From a virus (Duplodnaviria; Caudoviricetes), in IMG/VR virus record IMGVR_UViG_3300037608_000038, positions 1-40,131 of that record: DNA of 40,131 nt. One strand, given 5' to 3'. This document shows, piece by piece, positions 6,022-40,004 of the stretch; the stretch's first letter is position 1, and every line of letters starts with the position of its first letter. A model generated the notes under the pieces. The model did not search any database. It was not told the origin of the DNA and saw only the letters and a program-made list of their open reading frames with translations. Both the position numbers and the translations under genes were made by a program.

Positions 6022-6052
6022 TTCGCCCCCGTGCGGGGGCGTGGATTGAAAT
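6022..6052 (+). CRISPR. Solitary type I-C CRISPR repeat unit (candidate Racr)
   Basis: TTCGCCCCCGTGCGGGGGCGTGGATTGAAAT: 7-bp stem plus the GTGGATTGAAAT 3' handle typical of I-C repeats; no second repeat nearby and no cas genes. Confidence 0.85.
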
Positions 6053-6311: not shown

Positions 6312-7010
6312 CTAGAATCCACTTTCTCCGGATATAACAACTACTTCCCTGATAGCCTCCAGCCAATCAATATCACGCAATCGCTGATCCCTAAAATCCT
6401 CGATTATTGCTCTCATAGGAGCTTTAGCCCGGTTATTGACGATAGTAAAATTTCTGTCGCCGTCGCCTTCGGTGTAAATCTTGTGCTTGATGCCAAACAA
6501 CCCCCGCACGAAGTCCATAAATATCTCATCGGTTTTCCGACCTTCCACGCAATCCTCGAAGTAGTTGGCAAAGTCCTCGTAGGACTGTTTCCAGGCATAG
6601 CCGCCGGAACTTTGATTACCAAAGTTCATAGACTGTCCCATTAGGGAGCAGGCTTTTTGCCAGAGCAATGAACCGTCAGCCCCGAACTTTGTCAAGTGTA
6701 TGTAATGGCCTATTTCATGGGGCAACGAAGATGTTTTGCCATCCATAACAACACGCTTATACTCCTCTTCCTGGCAGCCGGCGGCTATCCACTCTTCAAG
6801 GGTAATCATACGCGCAAAAATCAGAGTGATGTCCGGCCTGATGTGTTCCCTATTGGTGTTTGTGAGGTCCTCCCATCCCGGATATTTCATGTCAAGGTAA
6901 ATACCCAGTTCCGGGAACATTCGCCAGGAAAAGCCGTTGCGTACCAACAGAGGGTAGTAGTCTCTTTTGTACACGTCATAATCTGCGTCTTTTTCAAAAT
7001 GAACTTTCAA
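6312..7010 (-). CDS. HExxH zincin-like metallopeptidase with C-terminal stalk-like domain
   Basis: LPHEIGHYIH motif with downstream YEDFANYF; C-terminal FTIVNNRAKAPMRAIIE...IDW; AAAGGAG RBS before TTG at 7010. Confidence 0.65.
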   Translation of the reverse strand: MKVHFEKDADYDVYKRDYYPLLVRNGFSWRMFPELGIYLDMKYPGWEDLTNTNREHIRPDITLIFARMITLEEWIAAGCQEEEYKRVVMDGKTSSLPHEIGHYIHLTKFGADGSLLWQKACSLMGQSMNFGNQSSGGYAWKQSYEDFANYFEDCVEGRKTDEIFMDFVRGLFGIKHKIYTEGDGDRNFTIVNNRAKAPMRAIIEDFRDQRLRDIDWLEAIREVVVISGESGF

Positions 7011-7056
7011 TGTTCCAGCTCCTTTCAAATAAAAATACCGCTCTCTGCGGTAAATG

Positions 7057-7085
7057 TTTACACGTTTGTGAATACGTGTTATATT
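7057..7085 (+). promoter_or_regulatory. Moron promoter with operator-like inverted repeat
   Basis: TTTACA-17-TATATT with extended TG; acacgt-N8-acgtgt in the spacer region. Confidence 0.6.
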
Positions 7086-7103
7086 GTGCTTGAGGTGAGT
7101 AGG

Positions 7104-7565
7104 GTGAAAAAATTAACTATTCCTCTGGCGATATTAATTTCCCTTATTGCCGCTAATGTGATGCGTTTTGACACTGAAGCAACAAAAGCCGTTCCAGACA
7201 GCGCTATTTATTATAAATGGGTACGCGATAGGTGGACCGGTGACCTCTGGACGCTTCGATATAGTCCGAGCGGCCTTAGTGAAGAGGTTTCCTTGCCTAA
7301 CCCTAAAATTACGCCATTGGCTCCACAGAGCGGGTGGAGGGATTGGCAACCATCTACTAATACCGATACAAATAGAATACAGACTTCTTTTAAAAAGCCT
7401 TCATGGGAAACTAAAGCGGAAGACGAGGCCAACGCGGCGGCAATTAGGCGGAAACAGTGGTACACAGATCTTTGGTATGTGCTGACATTTGGTTCATCCG
7501 TATGGACTCTCCTGGCTGTCAGGGGTTGCCTTAAAGAGAGGAAGAAAAAGGAGGGATATCTGTGA
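7104..7565 (+). CDS. Two-TM membrane protein (153 aa) carrying a copy of the ejection-protein N-terminal motif; candidate superinfection-exclusion protein
   Basis: GTG at 7104 with GAGGTG RBS; hydrophobic N-terminus, C-terminal TM and basic tail; the loop contains TNTDTNRIQTSFKKPSWET. Confidence 0.75.
   Translation: MKKLTIPLAILISLIAANVMRFDTEATKAVPDSAIYYKWVRDRWTGDLWTLRYSPSGLSEEVSLPNPKITPLAPQSGWRDWQPSTNTDTNRIQTSFKKPSWETKAEDEANAAAIRRKQWYTDLWYVLTFGSSVWTLLAVRGCLKERKKKEGYL
7359..7414 (+). repeat. 56-bp inverted repeat, copy 1 (partner 11180-11235)
   Basis: 54/56 identity with the reverse complement of 11180-11235. Confidence 0.95.
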
Positions 7566-7843
7566 GCGCTGAACATATTCTGTATCTTATAATGGCCCCT
7601 TTCTTTCTTTGGTTTATTGTTGTGGATATGTTACTGATACATATGGGGACATATGACGCTAAAACGCTGATAAAAAACGCACTTATAATTATAGTATTCT
7701 TCGGAGCACTTTTTTCATTCTACTATCTTGGCGAGAAATCGCCGGGGACGGCTTTCATACTGAGCTTAGGCTTGCTTTTGTTCTTTGCCGGTATAATGGT
7801 TAGTGAGATGTCGCGTACCGGCGCGCGCGATCGAGATGATTAG
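7562..7843 (+). CDS. Three-TM membrane protein (93 aa), second gene of the moron
   Basis: GTGA overlap with the previous gene, GGAGGG RBS, three hydrophobic segments. Confidence 0.75.
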   Translation: MSAEHILYLIMAPFFLWFIVVDMLLIHMGTYDAKTLIKNALIIIVFFGALFSFYYLGEKSPGTAFILSLGLLLFFAGIMVSEMSRTGARDRDD

Positions 7844-7863
7844 GGAGGGGCTAACCCCTCCCT
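7842..7863. terminator. Bidirectional terminator
   Basis: agggaggggctaacccctccct hairpin between convergent stops. Confidence 0.7.
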
Positions 7864-10800
7864 TTATTTTTTCTCTGCCCAAATCAAGGCTCTCTTGCGG
7901 TCCAGTTGTAGATATCTCTGATGTTTTTCTTCCGGCGTCATTTTAGTATCGGTGTTAAGCTTCTTAATTTGGGCGTTAATTCTGTCGATTTCCCGCCGCT
8001 TAAGGGTTTCTCTATACATAGCCTGCGGATTCGGGCTTCGTTGGTATGCCTTGGTTTGTTTTTCGCTCAGCGGACGGCGGTTGCTTTCGTAGTATTCTCT
8101 GGTTTCGGGAAAGCCGCCCGGCCCAAACAAAGCGCCCTTGACAGTGTTGGCCATGCCGGTATCTACGGGATATTTCAATTGCGTTCCCGCTGTATTATAT
8201 ACCCCGCCTTGGGACAATGCCCTTATGCCTCTGATCGTTTTTTGCGCCTGTGCTCCACCAAATGGCGGCAACGCTTTATATAAGGGGTCGCTCAATCCTT
8301 TTCCTATCAAGAGTCCAGTCCCAAACCTTGTAGGGTCATTTCTGCCAAATAGTTCTTTGCGGGTATAAGGCATTTTAGAATCTTTGCCAAAACCGTGCTC
8401 GGGGTACGCTGCCGCCACAAACTGCCCCGCAGGTGTGTTGGATATTACTTCACCCGCAAGCCTCCCGGCTCTTTGGGTTGGCGAAATGTCTTCTTCTGAT
8501 AAAGCATCGTAAACAGCATCGATAGGATCGAATACTATCCCGGAACCCCTAACTTGTTCCAACCCCCTATTAAGCAAAAAATTAGCTGCGTAAAGCATCG
8601 CCAAGCCTGTAAAGTCCCGCGCTTTTAAAAAGTCCCTCTGTACATGCCAAAGGTTGGCAACTTCAACGGTAAACGGGGCTACAAGCTGCACAAGCTTAGC
8701 CTGCTGGGCGATAGAAACTTCCCCTATCCCCCGACCTGCCACAAGGTTCCTGGTTATATCATCAGCATATTTTACGGGGTTAGCAATCTTTTCAGCCAGG
8801 GCTTTTTGATAGGTGGAATTCCAGATATACTCCGTCCCAACCTTGTCCATGACTTCAAGCATCCAGGCGGCAAACTTCTTAGGCTGGTCAATCAGCCTTT
8901 GGTCAAACTGGCGGAATGGATGCGAGAATCGCTCTTTTAGGAAGCCTGATTGCGCCATTTCCGCCGAAGGCTTGAATATTGACCTCACATACCGCGTAAA
9001 TCCGGGAATGGAATACTGCTTATTATAGGCTATTCCTTGGGGTACGTTGGCGATCTGTGAGAGGGAGGACGCGGCATTACCCATTATTACATTAGCTTTA
9101 ACTCTGCTGTTCAGCCAATTTAAGCCCTTAAATGCCATCCGTCCGCCTGGGATAATCTTTTGGATTGCTCTGTCAAAAGGGTTGGTTTTCCCGGCCAGTT
9201 GCCCGGAATAGTCCCGAAGATACTCTATGAAGGTGTTTAAATTTTTTGTTCCTTCTGTAGCTGTTGCCAACTCATCAGCTAACTTAGTAAACTTACTGAT
9301 GTGCGGATCGATATGTTTTGCATAAGAGGCTGCGGGAATATAGTCGAGAAAGCCGCCGACCGCATCGTTTTTAAACGGTCCTAGGCCGCGCTTTTGAGCA
9401 AAGGAGAGGAATTTAGACTTCGGTTGCGTAAAATCAGATATCCCGGCTAAACTAGGGTTGATGCCCGCAGGAGTTTCAAAGAGGTTTTTCACTCCCTCGA
9501 AAGTATCGGACAGTTCCCGGAAGTGCCGGTAATAGTCCTGACGTTCAGGGATCCTCTTACCTCTCCAAAGATCCTCGTTGTTCTTTAACTCTACCGCTTT
9601 ATTCAGCCTATCTTTAAGATGGTCTATTTGTTCCGTTAGCTGTTGGGCTTTAGCCCCGCGTCCTGTTGTGGCTTTTTGTGCTATTTCGAGTTCTTTCTGC
9701 TTACTTTGAATATCCTGTCTGATATTCTTAATATTATCGTCCAGGGCTGCCAGATCCCTTTCTACATATGGATATATTTTTGCACGGATTTCATTTACTT
9801 CATCCAGAAGAGTCTTATATGCTTTTCTAAACCATGTGTCAGCTTCTTTAACTTTGGCTAGTTCATCAGTCCTAAGGGATAACAGTTCTTGCTCCGTTAT
9901 GGTTTTCTCTCCGTATTTCTGGACCATTTTAGACAATCTACTGCCTTTTTGTATACCTAACCTATCCACTACTTCCGTTTTGAGTTTGTTAGCCCATAGC
10001 TCCTGCGTTTCTACGTTTGCCTTTTTTGAAGCGTCAAAAGGATCAAGTATTTCCTTTTTCACCTTAGGAAAATGTTCTCCAAATACAGCCTCGAAGTTGC
10101 GGTATACGGAGTTGGTATATGCCCGCCACCCGCTTAGGTCTTTTAGTTTTGTGGGGTTAAGAGGTTCATCAAGTTTTTGGGCAGTTTGTTTTATTGGTTC
10201 TTCCCAACTAGGTACTTTCGGAGGTTTGCCTTTCATAGCACGTATTTCGTCTACTATTTGTGACCTTGTTTTCGTTTCGCCTATGAAAGCATCTTTATCA
10301 TATACTTTAGGCTGTTCGATGGTTTGTTTAAACTCTAGGGGAGTAACCTGTGCCTGAGCCTGTTTCTTGGGCAGTATGGGAGGTTTTGCAGGGTCGTAAG
10401 GTTTGCCGATCATCTCGAAGTTTTGTCCTTCATTCAATAGCCTTCCACTTTGAACAGCTTCACTCTGGCTATCCCGTACTACTTTGCGAATTGCGGCCTT
10501 TTGGGTATCGTTCATATTGTCCCAGTCTACGCCTATTTCTTTAGCTACTCCTTTAACCAACATTTCAGGATCTGCAGAACCTACACGTTTAAATACTTTG
10601 TCAAATGCAGGCTTAATTTTGTTGGCCAACGCCGGCAATCCTACCTCTGCTAACGGCCCGAAAATAGCCGCACCGCCTCCATATAAGGCCGCCTCTGTGC
10701 CTGCCTGCTTGAGAACGTCTGTTCCCCTCTTGCCTTCGGCAAAGGCCTCTACGCCCCCTTTAACGGCTCCTAAAGGAGCGTCGCCGACGAGTCCGGTTAC

Positions 10801-11265
10801 AGCAGATTTAAGAACGGGGCTGGCGATTTTAGAGATAAAGGGTAGTTTGCTGGCTGCTTGGTACGCCTTACCGAATGGCAGAATGCTCCCAGCCAGCTGT
10901 CCCGCTGTGGCAGTAGATAGTATCCCCTGGCTGTACTTGGGCATTTCCTGGGCTAATTTTTCTTGCCCTGCGCCCAAGGTTAATCCACTCATCATATTTG
11001 ATAGAAACACGTCGCCGCGGTTATACTCCCCCCTGTTCAAGGCCTCCCCCGCCTGACGGGTTACTCTGTCCCTGGGCAGTTCGTAGGGTTCAGGCGGAGC
11101 CATTTGAGTATTAAAAATACCGCCTTGTTGTGGCGGCTGGGGGGGAGACAATACAGGCTGCTGATATTGCGGGGAGGGATTAGTTTCCCATGAAGGCTTT
11201 TTAACGGAAGTCTGTATTCTATTTGTATCGGTATTTGTTTCCCATGAAGGCCTTTTTAAAGCCAT
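7864..11265 (-). CDS. Large internal virion / DNA-ejection protein (1133 aa)
   Basis: Last large gene of a podoviral tail module; low-complexity N-terminus with two K(R/K)PSWET motifs, Gly/Ala-rich membrane-type segments and a helical C-terminus. Confidence 0.7.
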   Translation of the reverse strand: MALKRPSWETNTDTNRIQTSVKKPSWETNPSPQYQQPVLSPPQPPQQGGIFNTQMAPPEPYELPRDRVTRQAGEALNRGEYNRGDVFLSNMMSGLTLGAGQEKLAQEMPKYSQGILSTATAGQLAGSILPFGKAYQAASKLPFISKIASPVLKSAVTGLVGDAPLGAVKGGVEAFAEGKRGTDVLKQAGTEAALYGGGAAIFGPLAEVGLPALANKIKPAFDKVFKRVGSADPEMLVKGVAKEIGVDWDNMNDTQKAAIRKVVRDSQSEAVQSGRLLNEGQNFEMIGKPYDPAKPPILPKKQAQAQVTPLEFKQTIEQPKVYDKDAFIGETKTRSQIVDEIRAMKGKPPKVPSWEEPIKQTAQKLDEPLNPTKLKDLSGWRAYTNSVYRNFEAVFGEHFPKVKKEILDPFDASKKANVETQELWANKLKTEVVDRLGIQKGSRLSKMVQKYGEKTITEQELLSLRTDELAKVKEADTWFRKAYKTLLDEVNEIRAKIYPYVERDLAALDDNIKNIRQDIQSKQKELEIAQKATTGRGAKAQQLTEQIDHLKDRLNKAVELKNNEDLWRGKRIPERQDYYRHFRELSDTFEGVKNLFETPAGINPSLAGISDFTQPKSKFLSFAQKRGLGPFKNDAVGGFLDYIPAASYAKHIDPHISKFTKLADELATATEGTKNLNTFIEYLRDYSGQLAGKTNPFDRAIQKIIPGGRMAFKGLNWLNSRVKANVIMGNAASSLSQIANVPQGIAYNKQYSIPGFTRYVRSIFKPSAEMAQSGFLKERFSHPFRQFDQRLIDQPKKFAAWMLEVMDKVGTEYIWNSTYQKALAEKIANPVKYADDITRNLVAGRGIGEVSIAQQAKLVQLVAPFTVEVANLWHVQRDFLKARDFTGLAMLYAANFLLNRGLEQVRGSGIVFDPIDAVYDALSEEDISPTQRAGRLAGEVISNTPAGQFVAAAYPEHGFGKDSKMPYTRKELFGRNDPTRFGTGLLIGKGLSDPLYKALPPFGGAQAQKTIRGIRALSQGGVYNTAGTQLKYPVDTGMANTVKGALFGPGGFPETREYYESNRRPLSEKQTKAYQRSPNPQAMYRETLKRREIDRINAQIKKLNTDTKMTPEEKHQRYLQLDRKRALIWAEKK
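11180..11235 (-). repeat. 56-bp inverted repeat, copy 2 (partner 7359-7414)
   Basis: Encodes NTDTNRIQTSVKKPSWET in the ejection protein. Confidence 0.95.
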
Positions 11266-11283
11266 ACTAACCCCTCCTTTTTT

Positions 11284-12630
11284 CTACTTATAGCTGGGGT
11301 AAAGCTGTTCAAGTAAGTACTGATAAGCACCGGGACCAGCGTCTTGGATAATTTCTGCTTTGTGATTAAAAAGCCAGTCGTTCCGCTCTTGCAGTGAACT
11401 GAACCGGTTCATTTCTTTAATTGCAGATGCTATCCAATAATTAGTTGTTTCTGTTTGCGTAGGACCTTTAATGCTTGGTAATCTATTTTGTTGCTGCTGT
11501 AACTGTTGCTGCTGATATGGTGTAGGCCCTGCAATATACGGCAGCTGGGCCCTGTAGTTCTGCTCTCCCTGATTATACTGGGCAAGTTCCTGTTCTCTTC
11601 CGGCTTTCTCCGCTGCCAGCTGTCGGGTTGCGTATTGGCTCATAGTATTTTGCAGGGCTGTTTTTGTGCTGTCTGCGTAAGAACTAAAGGCATTCATCTG
11701 GTTTTTACCGTACCCGCTTAGAGCGCTAAGCCTAGATTGGGCAAACTGCAGCAGTGAACTGATCATCTGGTTCTGCAGATCCTGGACACGTTGGGCGCGG
11801 ATCATCGTTTCCCGTTCATTGGCCGTCCCTGCCAGTTTTCCAAATTCTTCGATTGTGATGCCGGATTGTGCTATTCCTCTGCGGTTTAGTTCTTCCATAA
11901 TCTGCTGCCCACGCTGTTTAACCGATTGCTCTAAACTGGCAAGGGCTTGTTGGGTTGCCGGGTCTATGCCGCCTATCTGGTCCTGGAACATCTTAAGTAT
12001 TTCTGATTTAGCGCTTTCTAAGGCCGCTAGTTCGTTATTGCTTATTTGAGCTGCTAAGCCTATGTTAGAATTATACAAAGCCTGATACTCTTGTTGCATA
12101 GCCTGATACCCTTGTTGCATAGCTATAAAAGCAGGGTCTTTTGTTACGTCATATGCAATTTGCTTTTTTTCTATTATTGCATTGGGTTGGTAATTCTGCT
12201 GGTTCGGATCTAGCAGGCTCTGGTATAGTTGGGCTTGAGTTTGAGTCATATCTCCTGCCGGTCCGGATCCTCTTTGTTCTGCTTTTTGCTCTATTCCTCC
12301 GTCCTGGTATCCTCCGCCTACTCTGATGGTAGAATCTCCGGACATTCCGGTGTAGGGGGAGCCTTGTCCTTCACCGGTGGTTGTCCTGAAATCGCCCATA
12401 CCGCCTGAAGCAGGGGCAGATTGTTGACTTAATTTTGAAGTATTAAGATTGGGCAATGTAGGGGTTGATGGTTTATACACCATCGGTTGAGGTGCAGATG
12501 TTCCAGCTTGCGTATATTTAGATTGTGGAGCATATGAACTCTTGTTATACCAAGTATCGCCAAACTTTATTTGGCCTGCAGCTGTACGCCTTTCCGTTTC
12601 TCTTAAATCTCCAAATCCCATAATAATCAT
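11284..12630 (-). CDS. Gln-rich coiled-coil internal virion / ejection protein
   Basis: Position, Q/A-rich helical composition, LNRRGIAQSG motif. Confidence 0.6.
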   Translation of the reverse strand: MIIMGFGDLRETERRTAAGQIKFGDTWYNKSSYAPQSKYTQAGTSAPQPMVYKPSTPTLPNLNTSKLSQQSAPASGGMGDFRTTTGEGQGSPYTGMSGDSTIRVGGGYQDGGIEQKAEQRGSGPAGDMTQTQAQLYQSLLDPNQQNYQPNAIIEKKQIAYDVTKDPAFIAMQQGYQAMQQEYQALYNSNIGLAAQISNNELAALESAKSEILKMFQDQIGGIDPATQQALASLEQSVKQRGQQIMEELNRRGIAQSGITIEEFGKLAGTANERETMIRAQRVQDLQNQMISSLLQFAQSRLSALSGYGKNQMNAFSSYADSTKTALQNTMSQYATRQLAAEKAGREQELAQYNQGEQNYRAQLPYIAGPTPYQQQQLQQQQNRLPSIKGPTQTETTNYWIASAIKEMNRFSSLQERNDWLFNHKAEIIQDAGPGAYQYLLEQLYPSYK

Positions 12631-12653: not shown

Positions 12654-13145
12654 CTATTGGCTCTCTTCTTTCCAGGCTTTATATGACCGCTCTATATAAT
12701 CCAGGGTTCCGTCAGGCGCGTTAATTATTTCTGCCGCCCTTCGTTCTTCTGCATATGCTATTTCCTCTTCTTTATCTAAATTGTTAAAATTAAATCTGCC
12801 GTTATTATATCTGCTTATGTGGACAGATTCATGTACCAATGTGACTGCAATTGTATAAGGCTTATATTCATCAAATATTGTATATTGTCGATAAGCTACT
12901 ACCGTCATTCCAAAACTACCGTCTTTATGAGCTCCATTAAAATCATCTGTTTTGTTATAAAAAATCCGCTTTACGTTTTCTGTTATTAACCTATGATGTT
13001 CCGGGCTTTTTTCTTTAAGCAACGCCAGGGCCTCGTGGATATCCTTCTGGAACTCCTCCGGACCCTCTATTATTGGTTGTTGACTGCATCCTACCAACAA
13101 TAACGCAAGCAGTATAAAAACAATCAGGCGTTTCATATACACCAC
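12654..13145 (-). CDS. Lipoprotein with HExxH motif (moron)
   Basis: LLLVGC lipobox; TLVHESVH...EE motif; own promoter TTGACT-18-TATATT at 13186-13157. Confidence 0.75.
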   Translation of the reverse strand: MVYMKRLIVFILLALLLVGCSQQPIIEGPEEFQKDIHEALALLKEKSPEHHRLITENVKRIFYNKTDDFNGAHKDGSFGMTVVAYRQYTIFDEYKPYTIAVTLVHESVHISRYNNGRFNFNNLDKEEEIAYAEERRAAEIINAPDGTLDYIERSYKAWKEESQ

Positions 13146-19139: not shown

Positions 19140-19922
19140 TTAAGTTACAGTAGCGCTAAACGGTGTAGCTTCAGCGCCGGTTGCAGAACCCATTACACGC
19201 ACATACCATGTATCGGTTGCAATATCGATTAACTCTACGCTATCCCCTTTTATTCCGCCTGTAGTGGTTCCGTTAAAAGTAATAGTGTCAGAGTCGGCGG
19301 CGGTTTCCCATCCTGATACAGTTGCATCAGCATCATTACAGATTATTGCTGCACCTGTCATGATATCGTTCCCTGTTACTTTTATGGTAGTGGAGTTAGA
19401 TGTTACAGTTGTGCCGATAATCAGATGGAATTTTGCCCCGCTTCCTGTGGCGGCAGGAAGTGTTATGGCTGCACCGGCTGCTTGGTTTATCGTAACAACT
19501 TTATTATCATGCGATGCTTCGGTTAAGGATAGGTTCGCGGTAGTGTTTACGACTCTGGAGGACACATCACACGCCCTATTTATTTCTGCAGTGGTTGACG
19601 TAACACCGTTTAATATGTTTATTTCCGCGGTAGTTGATGTAACGCCAGTCAGTTTATTAATTTCTGTAGCTGTAGACGTTACGCCAGTCAGTTTATTAAG
19701 CTCTGCGGTAGTTGACGTTAAACCAGCCAGTTTGTTGATTTCCGCGGTTGTTGCTGTGGCTCCAGCTAGTTTATTAAGCTCTGCGGTAGTTGCTGTTACG
19801 CTGGTCAGTTTATTTAGCTCTGCGGCTGTAGACGTTACAACAGTCCCGTTAAGTTTCAGATCCTGAACATCCATCCGCAACGTTTTCGCCCATGGGAAGA
19901 AGTAACTAAATAGTTTAATCAT
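19140..19922 (-). CDS. Putative head fibre / decoration protein with 7 x 13-aa repeats
   Basis: (V/A/L)T(S/A)TxxE(L/I)NxLxG tandem repeats; C-terminal ITLPAATGSG beta domain. Confidence 0.65.
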   Translation of the reverse strand: MIKLFSYFFPWAKTLRMDVQDLKLNGTVVTSTAAELNKLTSVTATTAELNKLAGATATTAEINKLAGLTSTTAELNKLTGVTSTATEINKLTGVTSTTAEINILNGVTSTTAEINRACDVSSRVVNTTANLSLTEASHDNKVVTINQAAGAAITLPAATGSGAKFHLIIGTTVTSNSTTIKVTGNDIMTGAAIICNDADATVSGWETAADSDTITFNGTTTGGIKGDSVELIDIATDTWYVRVMGSATGAEATPFSATVT

Positions 19923-26546: not shown

Positions 26547-26783
26547 ATGGATAAATTAGTTATAGGCAAAGATTATGGTCCCATATTTGGACTAAATGCG
26601 GGGACCGGGCAAAAAATGGTATACAACGGTGGTATAAATTGGACAGCTATTAATGGTGATTTGCAGCAGACCGATGATAGCCGCGAGGCCACTGACGAGG
26701 CAATCAATCATTTATATTTAATGCCCGACTACAAAAGCGACACAGAAATAATCGGAAATATTGGCTACAGGAGGGGTAAGTAA
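26547..26783 (+). CDS. Small hypothetical protein (78 aa), Acr candidate
   Basis: First gene after the strong promoter; AGGGGG RBS. Confidence 0.7.
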   Translation: MDKLVIGKDYGPIFGLNAGTGQKMVYNGGINWTAINGDLQQTDDSREATDEAINHLYLMPDYKSDTEIIGNIGYRRGK

Positions 26784-27349
26784 TGAAAAGATATACTAAT
26801 GGGATACCTAGTAGTTTACAGTTTGTTGAGGTCACTGGCGACGATGGTACTTTTTATGATTTGTGCCGCACGTTTGAGGTAAGCAAACATGTTGATATGC
26901 TAACAGCTGGGGGTTATGCCGCAGCGCCCATAAATACAAAAGATGTTCCGCCTTGCCAATTTCGTGATTTCTCCAATGGTTTGGGATCATATGCTGACGC
27001 TATATGGGACAGCGGTAAAGATTTTTACCACTGGGGCGGCAAACGCCCCGGCTCCGGGCGGAAACCGCTGGCAGAAAAGCGTAAGCGATACACCTTCCGG
27101 CTCACCGAGCCGGAACACAAAAAAGCCAGGGAATACATCGCCGAAATGAAGTCCCGGCATACTAAAAGAAAGGAGGAAGAAAAAATGGCTACTTTATATC
27201 ATGGGGATGAGTATTTAGGCGAAATTATCACCAACCAAAGCCTGTCAGTTGAGGACGCTTGCGAGTTACTTAATATTGACATCAACGAAATGGATGAATA
27301 TGGGAATGAATCGGTATGGGACTACGAATTATTTAGATTAGTTTACTAA
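26783..27349 (+). CDS. Multi-domain protein with GGxRxGxGRK / RHH-like DNA-binding segment; an internal RBS and ATG at 27185 gives a 54-aa acidic protein
   Basis: WGGKRPGSGRKP...YTFRLTEPEH...REYI; AAGGAGG before the in-frame ATG at 27185. Confidence 0.65.
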   Translation: MKRYTNGIPSSLQFVEVTGDDGTFYDLCRTFEVSKHVDMLTAGGYAAAPINTKDVPPCQFRDFSNGLGSYADAIWDSGKDFYHWGGKRPGSGRKPLAEKRKRYTFRLTEPEHKKAREYIAEMKSRHTKRKEEEKMATLYHGDEYLGEIITNQSLSVEDACELLNIDINEMDEYGNESVWDYELFRLVY

Positions 27350-28452: not shown

Positions 28453-28485
28453 ATTTCAATCCACGCCCTCGCAGGGGGGCCGGAC
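28453..28485 (-). CRISPR. Solitary type I-C-like repeat just downstream of the late promoter
   Basis: GTCCGGCCCCCCTGCGAGGGCGTGGATTGAAAT; intact 3' handle, imperfect stem. Confidence 0.7.
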
Positions 28486-33127: not shown

Positions 33128-33157
33128 CTACCCACCACCTAAGAGGCAAGGGCTTCC
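33128..33157 (-). mobile_element. Truncated IS605 right-end hairpin; the roughly 150-nt non-coding region upstream may be an omegaRNA relic
   Basis: gaagcccttgcctcttaggtggtgggtag, closely similar to 298-326. Confidence 0.5.
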
Positions 33158-36723: not shown

Positions 36724-37052
36724 AAATACTCCCTCCATCTATGGCCATGAGCCTTGATTAAATCCACCACGAGGCCGCGTCGTTCCCGGCTCCAGCACAT
36801 GCACCATTCCCTTATTTCCCTCTCTGTCTGTGCTCTAAAATGGCATCTTTGGCAGAGAGTTATGAGATTTTCTATAGTATGTATTCTCCTCCTTCCCATA
36901 CCGGCTCCGTAAGCGATATGATGCCTTTCTGTGCCCTTCATTCCGCACCTTTGGCACATGCGCTTGTCCCGTTCGTCTACTGCGGCTATGAGGGCTTTAG
37001 GGATGCCTAGAGGGGGTCTCTTTGGTTTGTGTTTCGGCTTGAATATTTGCAT
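36720..37052 (-). CDS. HNH endonuclease
   Basis: RD...CQRCG....HHI...ENLITLCQRCH; start coupled to the ERF stop. Confidence 0.85.
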   Translation of the reverse strand: MQIFKPKHKPKRPPLGIPKALIAAVDERDKRMCQRCGMKGTERHHIAYGAGMGRRRIHTIENLITLCQRCHFRAQTEREIREWCMCWSRERRGLVVDLIKAHGHRWREYL

Positions 37053-37804
37053 CAGATTATCTTCTTGTTTTTGGCTTGACAGTCTCTGCATAATGGCTTC
37101 CCGTAATATTTTTCGCTGTATACTTTTATGGCCGTGGTAATTGTTTGCCCGCATGAGCATTTAGGCATTGGCTCTTCTGCCAACTTTTTATCAAACTCTC
37201 TGCTGGCCTTTTCGTCATAAGGTACTTCGTGAAACCCAGGCGGCATATCACTCTTGCTAAATAATGGTTCTGTGGATTCGCTAGAGGGCGCAGGAGCGGA
37301 CGGGGATTGTACTGGCGGCTGCTGTGCCTGTTTGGGCTTGTCCTCGTGTTTTTCTTGAAAAGAATCGGGGTCATCTTTATCAGTGGCAATATTGAGAGAT
37401 TTAAGCAGGAAGTATTTTTCTCCGTATGTAAGGGCTTTACCAACTCCTTTTTCTCCGGCTATATCCACACCCTGACAGTACCAAGTGATCTGTATTTTTT
37501 CCTCTGGGTTGTCAACATTAACCCATGTCATGGTCATATCCAATTCGGTGAAGTATGTTGTGGTGCGCTTAATAACTCGGCCATCTTTGTCGTAGTATTC
37601 CTGGGTTTGGTCTGATACTTTATGGCCTGTTATTGCAGGGATTAAGAGCAGTCCCAGCTCATCCATTTTGACCCTGACGTTAGCTAATACCTGACTGCTT
37701 GAGACATATTTGTATTGGTTGCCATCGTTTTCTTTTTGCAGATAAGGAACCCATTTTCTTACCTCAACCAATTTTTGATAAATGTTTAACATTCGTTTCG
37801 GCAA
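37052..37804 (-). CDS. ERF-family single-strand annealing protein
   Basis: IYQKL......LQK...YKY...G.D..EKGVGKALTY..KY.L......T..DDPD; C-terminal Zn finger. Confidence 0.85.
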   Translation of the reverse strand: MPKRMLNIYQKLVEVRKWVPYLQKENDGNQYKYVSSSQVLANVRVKMDELGLLLIPAITGHKVSDQTQEYYDKDGRVIKRTTTYFTELDMTMTWVNVDNPEEKIQITWYCQGVDIAGEKGVGKALTYGEKYFLLKSLNIATDKDDPDSFQEKHEDKPKQAQQPPVQSPSAPAPSSESTEPLFSKSDMPPGFHEVPYDEKASREFDKKLAEEPMPKCSCGQTITTAIKVYSEKYYGKPLCRDCQAKNKKII

Positions 37805-38117
37805 GAAGTCTCCTGCCTCTAAGCTGCCTAACTCACGCTAGTGAGAGCGTAGGCGGGAGATGAATTGCCTTCACCTCCTTTTAAGTTTTTGTGTTATAAT
37901 TGCCTTAAGGCACTCCGCATTGCGGAGAAATGGTTTGCACCTTGAAAACAGAAGATATGGGGTTGTGCGAAGGAACCGTTTCGCGCGTAAAAGCTTCTGC
38001 GTTGGTCAGCACAAAGCAACTTCGCTGCTCGAAAGAGCAGGGCTGCAGTCAACCAGCCTATTGTAGCTCCATAAGGAAGCTACAAGCCCCCGCCTCTACA
38101 GGCGGTGGGTGGTTGAC
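37800..38117 (+). mobile_element. Non-autonomous IS200/IS605 element (PATE-like) with putative TnpB omegaRNA
   Basis: Left end 37800-37869, TGnTATAAT at 37892-37900, structured interior, RAAVNQPIV TnpB-like C-terminal relic, right end CAAG...TGAC. Confidence 0.75.
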
Positions 38118-38127
38118 TCTCAAACTT

Positions 38128-39545: not shown

Positions 39546-40004
39546 CTAAATAAGACTTTTTATGTATTGGATAACCCCCATATATTCCTTAAGGTATCGC
39601 TGATTATTGGTGTGTGTTTCATTGACCGCTTTTTCAAAATCAGACAAAGATCCCTTAAAACATCCGCACCATACATGATCATCATCAAAGCAATAGGTAG
39701 TACTACCCTTCCTGCTTCCAATGCATGAAATGACGATGTATCTTTTGTCTGTTTTAGCACCACATAGGTTAGCACCACATAGGTTAGCACCACGCAGGTT
39801 AGCATCACGCAGGTTAGCACCACACAGGTTAGCACCACACAGGTTAGCACCACACAGGTTAGCACCACGCAGGTTAGCACCACGCAGGTTAGCACCACAC
39901 AGGTTAGCACCACACAGGTTAGCACCACACAGGTTAGCACGTTCGCCGCCTTCCTCGTTATTAAGCCACTTCTCATGCAGTTTTAAAACCTTTTGGATAT
40001 CCAT
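39546..40004 (-). CDS. Pentapeptide-repeat protein
   Basis: About 12 ANL(C/R)G repeats; typical LKLHEKWL...GGERA N-terminus and IGSR...[18 protein letters not shown]-terminus. Confidence 0.9.

Follow-up and report, generated by a model that had tools for sequence, protein, structure and literature searches.

A membrane protein gene of a temperate phage carries a DNA copy of a motif from the neighbouring ejection gene: a possible decoy in superinfection exclusion

Introduction

The gene of the superinfection exclusion protein SieA of phage P22 is located after gene 16, next to the last ejection gene. The present analysis concerns a gene in a comparable position, encoding a small predicted membrane protein (M) in a phage genome of 40,131 nucleotides (nt) from the IMG/VR database (record IMGVR_UViG_3300037608_000038, positions 1 to 40,131; this whole stretch is referred to as the window). 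The gene of M lies beside that of a giant protein (E), presumably the last ejection protein, and contains a copy of DNA from the start of the E gene. SieA is a small membrane protein, as is predicted for M; both belong to temperate short-tailed phages with a P22-like portal, and both are encoded by accessory genes beside the last ejection gene. The position of M fits a SieA-like exclusion gene, superinfection exclusion being the function suggested in a first-pass annotation of this DNA.

The ejection-protein conduit at the cytoplasmic membrane is the inferred site of action of SieA (Leavitt et al., mBio 2024, PMC10883804). According to the accessible part of that study, gp16 and gp20 of P22 function only as matched pairs, the last 33 residues of gp20 are essential, and the recognition of the fast-changing ejection proteins by SieA-like proteins is stated as open. 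The same part reports no sequence common to SieA and the ejection proteins, whereas M carries a copy of a motif of its own phage. Sie2009 of Tuc2009, Ltp of TP-J34 and gp15 of HK97 act, unlike what is proposed for M, on long-tailed phages and tape-measure proteins, and no mimicry is described for them in the summary given in PMC10883804. E resembles the large polyvalent proteins in being a giant protein of a late operon; the accessible part of PMC5512222 does not describe N-terminal docking repeats paired with an upstream tail, as proposed below for E. Mimicry of an ejection motif as a means of superinfection exclusion was not found in open-licence papers and preprints. By analogy, M may work in a manner similar to SieA.

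A DNA copy of the start of E in the gene of M

The features on which the comparison rests are the following (aa, amino acids; TM, transmembrane).

7104..7565, plus strand: M, two-TM protein of 153 aa belonging to an unnamed mobile-element family; N-in/C-in topology with an outer loop predicted
7356..7414, plus strand: copied tract in M (TNTDTNRIQTSFKKPSWET, residues 85-103), about one 54-nt repeat unit of E, in a disordered loop
7864..11265, minus strand: E, 1133-aa giant (large polyvalent-type) protein, putative last ejection protein, with over 2000 homologues
11176..11256, minus strand: tandem motif K[KR]PSWETN at the N-terminus of E, present twice with a 54-nt period and including the donor arm 11180-11238
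10195..10218, minus strand: third motif copy in E, KVPSWEEP (W354), in the linker before the conserved core

The tract in M and the start of E form the strongest inverted repeat of the window, with arms of 59 nt at 7356-7414 and 11180-11238 that are identical at 56 of 59 positions. The first-pass annotation had given 54/56 identity for 7359-7414, and this sub-span indeed contains two mismatches, which are adjacent. The longest exact inverted match extends over 29 nt, compared with 14-18 nt when the bases of the window were shuffled 20 times. Both genes contain the tract in frame; it encodes TNTDTNRIQTS[V/F]KKPSWET, residues 85-103 of M being identical to residues 10-28 of E at 18 of 19 positions. 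The motif at the start of E is present twice, as had been annotated, with the copies 54 nt apart, and a further PSWEE was detected at residue 354, where relatives have DWQP, EWEP or NWEP instead.

Degenerate codons are identical at 15 of 17 positions in the tract, compared with 141 of 343 between the window's E and the core of E in its closest relative. Judged by this codon identity the tract in M is a DNA copy, and a recent one as had been supposed, whereas convergent evolution of the peptide is ruled out. A blastn search with the 840-nt cassette of the M locus against the rest of the genome gave strong matches only to the copied tract and to the other motif copy of E. Misassembly of the repeat, also raised in the first-pass annotation, is unlikely since a public contig with a depth of 109, possibly from the source sample, spans 6500-12000 without differences or joints.

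The pattern [KR]P[ST]W[EA] was found in 11 copies in 4 of 317 non-redundant E homologues. None of these copies lies beyond residue 100, and the pattern occurs neither in 77,470 background residues nor in the loops of other M proteins. Since KPSWE is thus native to the E lineage and no other member of the M family has the motif, copying from E to M is the parsimonious and most likely direction; a later back-copy from M to E may have followed. The only amino acid change between the two tracts is V to F, and F close before KPSWE also occurs in natural motif copies (TFKKPSWET, AFQKPSWET, SFQRPSWET). A scan with the KPSWET DNA pattern yielded 10 loci, namely the relative's E and short unrelated frames. 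The distribution of the motif suggests that the copy was made in one recent event.

The N-terminal motif of E and its likely partner

E is a giant gene of the late operon following the tail and nozzle genes and has viral homologues. Based on its position and family the protein is presumably packaged in the virion and ejected. No Pfam or PHROG match and no solved relative were found for it; some homologues are called LPD-containing in UniRef, and LPD39 is present on 28% of the members of its look-alike cluster in the Atlas. N-terminal repeats of many motif types were detected in 58 of 189 E homologues, compared with 2 shuffled controls and 1 core control. On the minus strand E is preceded by a tail gene, a small lipoprotein gene and the gene of a 448-aa protein (U).

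11284..12630, minus strand: U, 448-aa protein upstream of E, putative ejection (conduit) protein
11287..11493, minus strand: C-terminal four-helix domain of U, putative receptor of the motif

The tail of U is predicted to fold into four helices (pLDDT 85.5) and is 65% identical between the window and the closest relative; Foldseek gave no match for it at E<=0.001. Co-variation of E and U was assessed in 58 dereplicated loci out of 84 with an upstream gene, after loci with short U, X-containing or near-identical sequences had been dropped. The N-terminus of E co-varies with the last 75 residues of U (partial r 0.31 after removal of the E core and the rest of U, a value reached in 0 of 500 permutations), compared with 0.04 for the rest of U. 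The analysis narrows the putative target of the motif to the C-terminal helical domain of U. The proposal of the first-pass annotation that a partner ejection protein is the target thereby appears likely in a more specific form, as far as sequence comparison goes; no result pointed to the nozzle or the portal, also named there, at which no test was aimed.

As an independent test, viral contigs were scanned for the motif NPFDQFD, which gave 121 loci, 80 of them with flanks (L324-L403). In this group the upstream gene ends in a helical FxxK[YF]G tail of about 30 aa in 39 of 40 distinct loci, compared with 3 of 84 in the window's E family, and thus represents a second motif-tail pair. Body homology in the same group is limited to 40 of 780 pairs of giants and 13 of 780 pairs of U proteins. 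That the pairing persists although the bodies are unrelated speaks for a functional pair, and the N-terminal motif is likely a docking peptide for the C-terminal tail of the preceding ejection protein. The matched pair of gp16 and gp20 in P22 is comparable.

A conserved in-frame read-through from U to E was considered and rejected, the genes being in frame in 23 of 55 cases, which is near one third. The N-terminal region of U (11284-12630, minus strand) contains the motif G[FM]GD[LF]R twice, and similar motifs were seen by eye near the N-termini of several E homologues; this is possibly a second shared signal.

The M protein and its family

M and its neighbour M2 lie beyond E as two convergent membrane genes, followed by lysis genes.

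7057..7085, plus strand: sigma70-like promoter match TTTACA-17-TATATT with a TG extended -10, by consensus only; candidate independent moron promoter
7335..7352, plus strand: WRDWQP segment of the M loop, resembling W-motifs of related giants (weak, post hoc)
7562..7843, plus strand: M2, 93-aa three-TM protein between M and E, likely co-transcribed with M
7842..7863, plus strand: terminator-like hairpin that closes the M-M2 unit and lies at the stop of E

M had been annotated as convergent and separately promoted. The convergent orientation holds, with M2 placed between M and E, whereas the promoter is a consensus match, of which 3 were found with 1.9 expected; a palindrome (7060-7079) overlaps it. 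No homologue of M2 was found among the loci compared.

Proteins of the M family share a layout of TM1, a FRW..DRWTG..W beta sheet, a variable loop and a helix leading into TM2. M is predicted to be an integral membrane protein from its two hydrophobic helices and positive-inside charges. Net charge in the family is positive in 34 of 35 N-terminal and 32 of 35 C-terminal tails, and M is accordingly predicted to be N-in/C-in with its loop on the outer side of the cytoplasmic membrane. The motif was confirmed to lie between the predicted TM segments, as had been annotated, in a loop predicted to face outwards. The AlphaFold model consists of a helix, a beta sheet, a low-confidence loop at about residues 62-99 and a long helix, and the copied tract falls in the loop that is variable and disordered in the family, in which the distance between the TM segments ranges from 47 to 279 residues.

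In two sets of genomes searched around a Peptococcaceae metagenome-assembled genome the family was detected in 16 of 162 and in 21 of 401 members, and it also occurs in three phage records; one weak match was obtained among 88 genomes of the class of G555/G556, and protein searches added just two further relatives. Direct locus searches using M or E alone gave no match. An Atlas match for M scored 0.88 and serves as a lead only. Foldseek gave no match at E<=0.001, no named family matches M by profile or fold, and no Pfam or PHROG family was common to more than one of 19 M members at E<=0.05, the presence of a SieA profile in these libraries being unchecked. Two phage homologues of M have W-containing loop segments, FSWEE in L116 (3285-3719, minus strand) and PWPGWG in L198 (6719-7165, minus strand), which loosely resemble giant motifs and match their own giants no better than chance.

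Proposed mechanism and its alternatives

We give a rough probability of 0.52 to the reading that M is a SieA-like decoy for the tail of U in the lysogen; a decoy function whatever its target appears fairly probable. With its repeated N-terminal motif, the last ejection protein would dock on the tail of the preceding one, and the two would be coupled in ejection or conduit assembly, the docking on U being suggested by co-variation in two motif groups. Short-patch recombination, possibly catalysed by the ERF annealase of the phage, would have transferred one motif unit from E to M in a single recent event. The lysogen would then show the motif on the outer face of the cytoplasmic membrane by means of the M loop, and the ejected U of a kin phage would bind this loop instead of the N-terminus of E, so that the conduit stays incomplete and DNA entry stalls. 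With the predicted N-in/C-in topology, decoy and target would remain separate while the phage assembles its own particles in the cytoplasm, and the decoy would not encounter U until an incoming virion has ejected it. The predicted target range comprises phages with KPSWE-type motifs.

Several results weigh against this reading. Among 196 loci including the window, E was identifiable in 183, and 94 were distinct and had a complete 5' end and enough downstream DNA; many of these derive from distant hosts, and with the filter applied any convergent TM-like open reading frame (ORF) is present in 27 of the 94, several being doubtful. A DNA copy of the start of E in a neighbouring gene was detected in the window only (1 of 94 loci; score 103 compared with at most 33 elsewhere). 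Likewise, of the 410 TM ORFs tested near E, only the window's gave a protein match (z 18.5), the total of 5 top ranks being close to the 4.4 expected. Scores were obtained for the 35 of 39 candidate M loops that had sufficient length, and the window's alone lies far above its shuffles (97 vs 54), one glycine-rich loop being marginal (52 vs 49). None of the four M homologues that are convergent beside a giant (L002/L116, L197, L277, L278) copies the N-terminus of its own giant. In the NPFDQFD group the motif occurs in 0 of 306 neighbouring TM ORFs from 45 loci, with 2.4 expected by chance. Moreover, SieA excludes phages with very divergent gp16 and gp20 and is in this respect broad rather than motif-specific, according to the accessible part of PMC10883804, whereas M is predicted to be type-specific. 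Finally, the U tail and the start of E are adjacent in the DNA, and linkage alone could give part of their co-variation.

With only a single instance of the copy, two proposals of the first-pass annotation are unsupported, namely maintenance by gene conversion and a loop that co-varies with the ejection N-terminus of each phage, and the comparison with homologous morons that it had proposed came out against the idea. A family-wide decoy with co-variation was not found in the comparisons of E loci and M loops, and the expectation that membrane proteins beside NPFDQFD giants carry this motif was not borne out by the TM ORFs mentioned above. Integrated elements with primase-like genes were observed in L277 (6476-12799) and L278 (7066-13588), where giant and U-like genes of the element lie beside an M homologue; these elements are possibly satellites with ejection proteins.

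The rarity of the copy leads to the best surviving alternative, a tolerated accident in which an ectopic short patch entered a permissive loop and M works without the motif, possibly in a SieA-like manner via its beta sheet and helices. The wide range of loop lengths in the M family, the lack of a giant-protein motif in any other member and the presence of an ERF annealase agree with this, and the copy is too recent to read selection from. However, an accident would have to account for a patch in coding orientation and in frame that coincides exactly with the co-varying motif unit in E, the adjacent gene, for its being the sole strong genome match of the cassette, and for a second W-motif of the related-giant kind beside it. 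We regard a tolerated accident as rather unlikely.

This second W-motif, WRDWQP, is possibly an older mimic. Four instances of the pattern W[RKQ][DNE]W.P were found in the E homologues, which comprise 424,630 residues: three at the N-terminus of one homologue and one in the linker of the closest relative. The U tail belonging to the homologue with three copies aligns with that of the window. The segment is only a lead, since its pattern was selected post hoc and did not pass an unbiased test, 35 of 200 shuffles reaching the top score, which again speaks against the decoy. A bolder version of the decoy reading is self-templating exclusion, in which the prophage's own ejection gene would serve as the template from which the docking motif is copied to re-tune the surface decoy, the loop would retain earlier captures (WRDWQP beside KKPSWET) as an array against several kin types, and the pair of motif and U tail would be a general typed coupling code of podovirus ejection proteins. 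We consider this version speculative and improbable.

A decoy might also be read by the portal, the nozzle or E itself rather than by the tail of U. Segments of crAss001 cargo proteins bind the portal and the tail interior, according to the accessible part of PMC10172136, and the linkage noted above can account for part of the U-tail signal. Considering that in 39 of 40 loci, whose bodies are mostly unrelated, the motif goes together with one tail type, and that the co-variation is restricted to the last 75 residues of U, such another target seems distinctly unlikely.

Even less support can be given to a role at the RNA level or in the phage's own service, with pairing of the arms tuning the translation of E, or M tethering U or E of the phage itself to the membrane. 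A late read-through transcript of the minus strand, covering E and antisense M, would contain both arms in complementary form, and the donor arm lies 27 nt after the start codon of E; however, the arms are 3765 nt apart, the tract matches the protein motif unit and not the translation start, and a predicted outward loop would not meet cytoplasmic U. An invertible segment, in which the arms recombine, 3.8 kb flip and the N-termini are swapped to give a product of 78 aa and, under the moron promoter, a membrane-anchored M-E fusion of 1208 aa, is hardly credible: with inverted, in-frame arms both products are open frames, but the one contig shows no joint or second form (contigs drop rare forms), the 30 proteins scanned, which are not all ORFs of the window, include no small invertase and only a 468-aa large serine integrase, the 93 other loci have no such repeat, and inversion would take E out of the late operon.

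Genome context

With its terminal repeat of 127 nt, the window represents the circular assembly of a phage genome. Its DNA was located in one sequencing run, a groundwater metagenome, and no RNA run was listed. Its genes for a P22-like portal, terminase, capsid, large serine integrase, repressor and ERF annealase indicate a temperate short-tailed phage.

37052..37804, minus strand: ERF-family single-stranded DNA annealing protein, candidate catalyst of the short-patch copy

A prophage represents the closest locus; the record of its giant protein is from Thermanaerosceptrum fracticalcis (Peptococcaceae), and the host of the window phage is likely a Bacillota bacterium, judging from sequence relationships. 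In this relative E lies directly before a holin-like gene without M and M2 in between, which identifies M-M2 as an accessory insert. Another two-gene insert on the opposite strand (26547-27349, plus strand) has no PHROG or Pfam match.

The slot just downstream of E is occupied in L003, L006, L009, L098 and L116 by convergent membrane peptides of 59-76 aa, four of which have a similar C-terminal end, and in L004, L005 and L121 by a TM-anchored HExxH protein that is convergent directly after E. A lipoprotein with an HExxH motif is also encoded in the tail and ejection cluster of the window (12654-13145, minus strand; weak Peptidase_M91 match below the cut-off). It is possible that HExxH proteins near E are membrane proteases acting on ejected proteins.

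Further repeats were detected in the window: a pentapeptide-type tandem repeat of 15 nt within an ORF (39754-39948), 39-nt repeats with a 13-residue period in a late gene of 260 aa (19577-19849), and intergenic dispersed repeat pairs (103-143 / 38081-38121, 298-324 / 33130-33156, 6025-6052 / 28453-28480), some of which are palindromic.

Implications for podovirus ejection and exclusion

What the M locus adds is the capture of a putative docking motif at the DNA level, direct copying from the neighbouring gene being a route to a matched decoy. If the decoy reading is true, mimicry of a short docking peptide would provide a testable answer to the question of how SieA-like proteins recognise ejection proteins. 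Apart from M, the pairing of an N-terminal repeat with the C-terminal tail of the preceding protein names a small, expressible interface, which could explain how the ejection proteins of podoviruses are coupled and why they can be swapped only as matched pairs.

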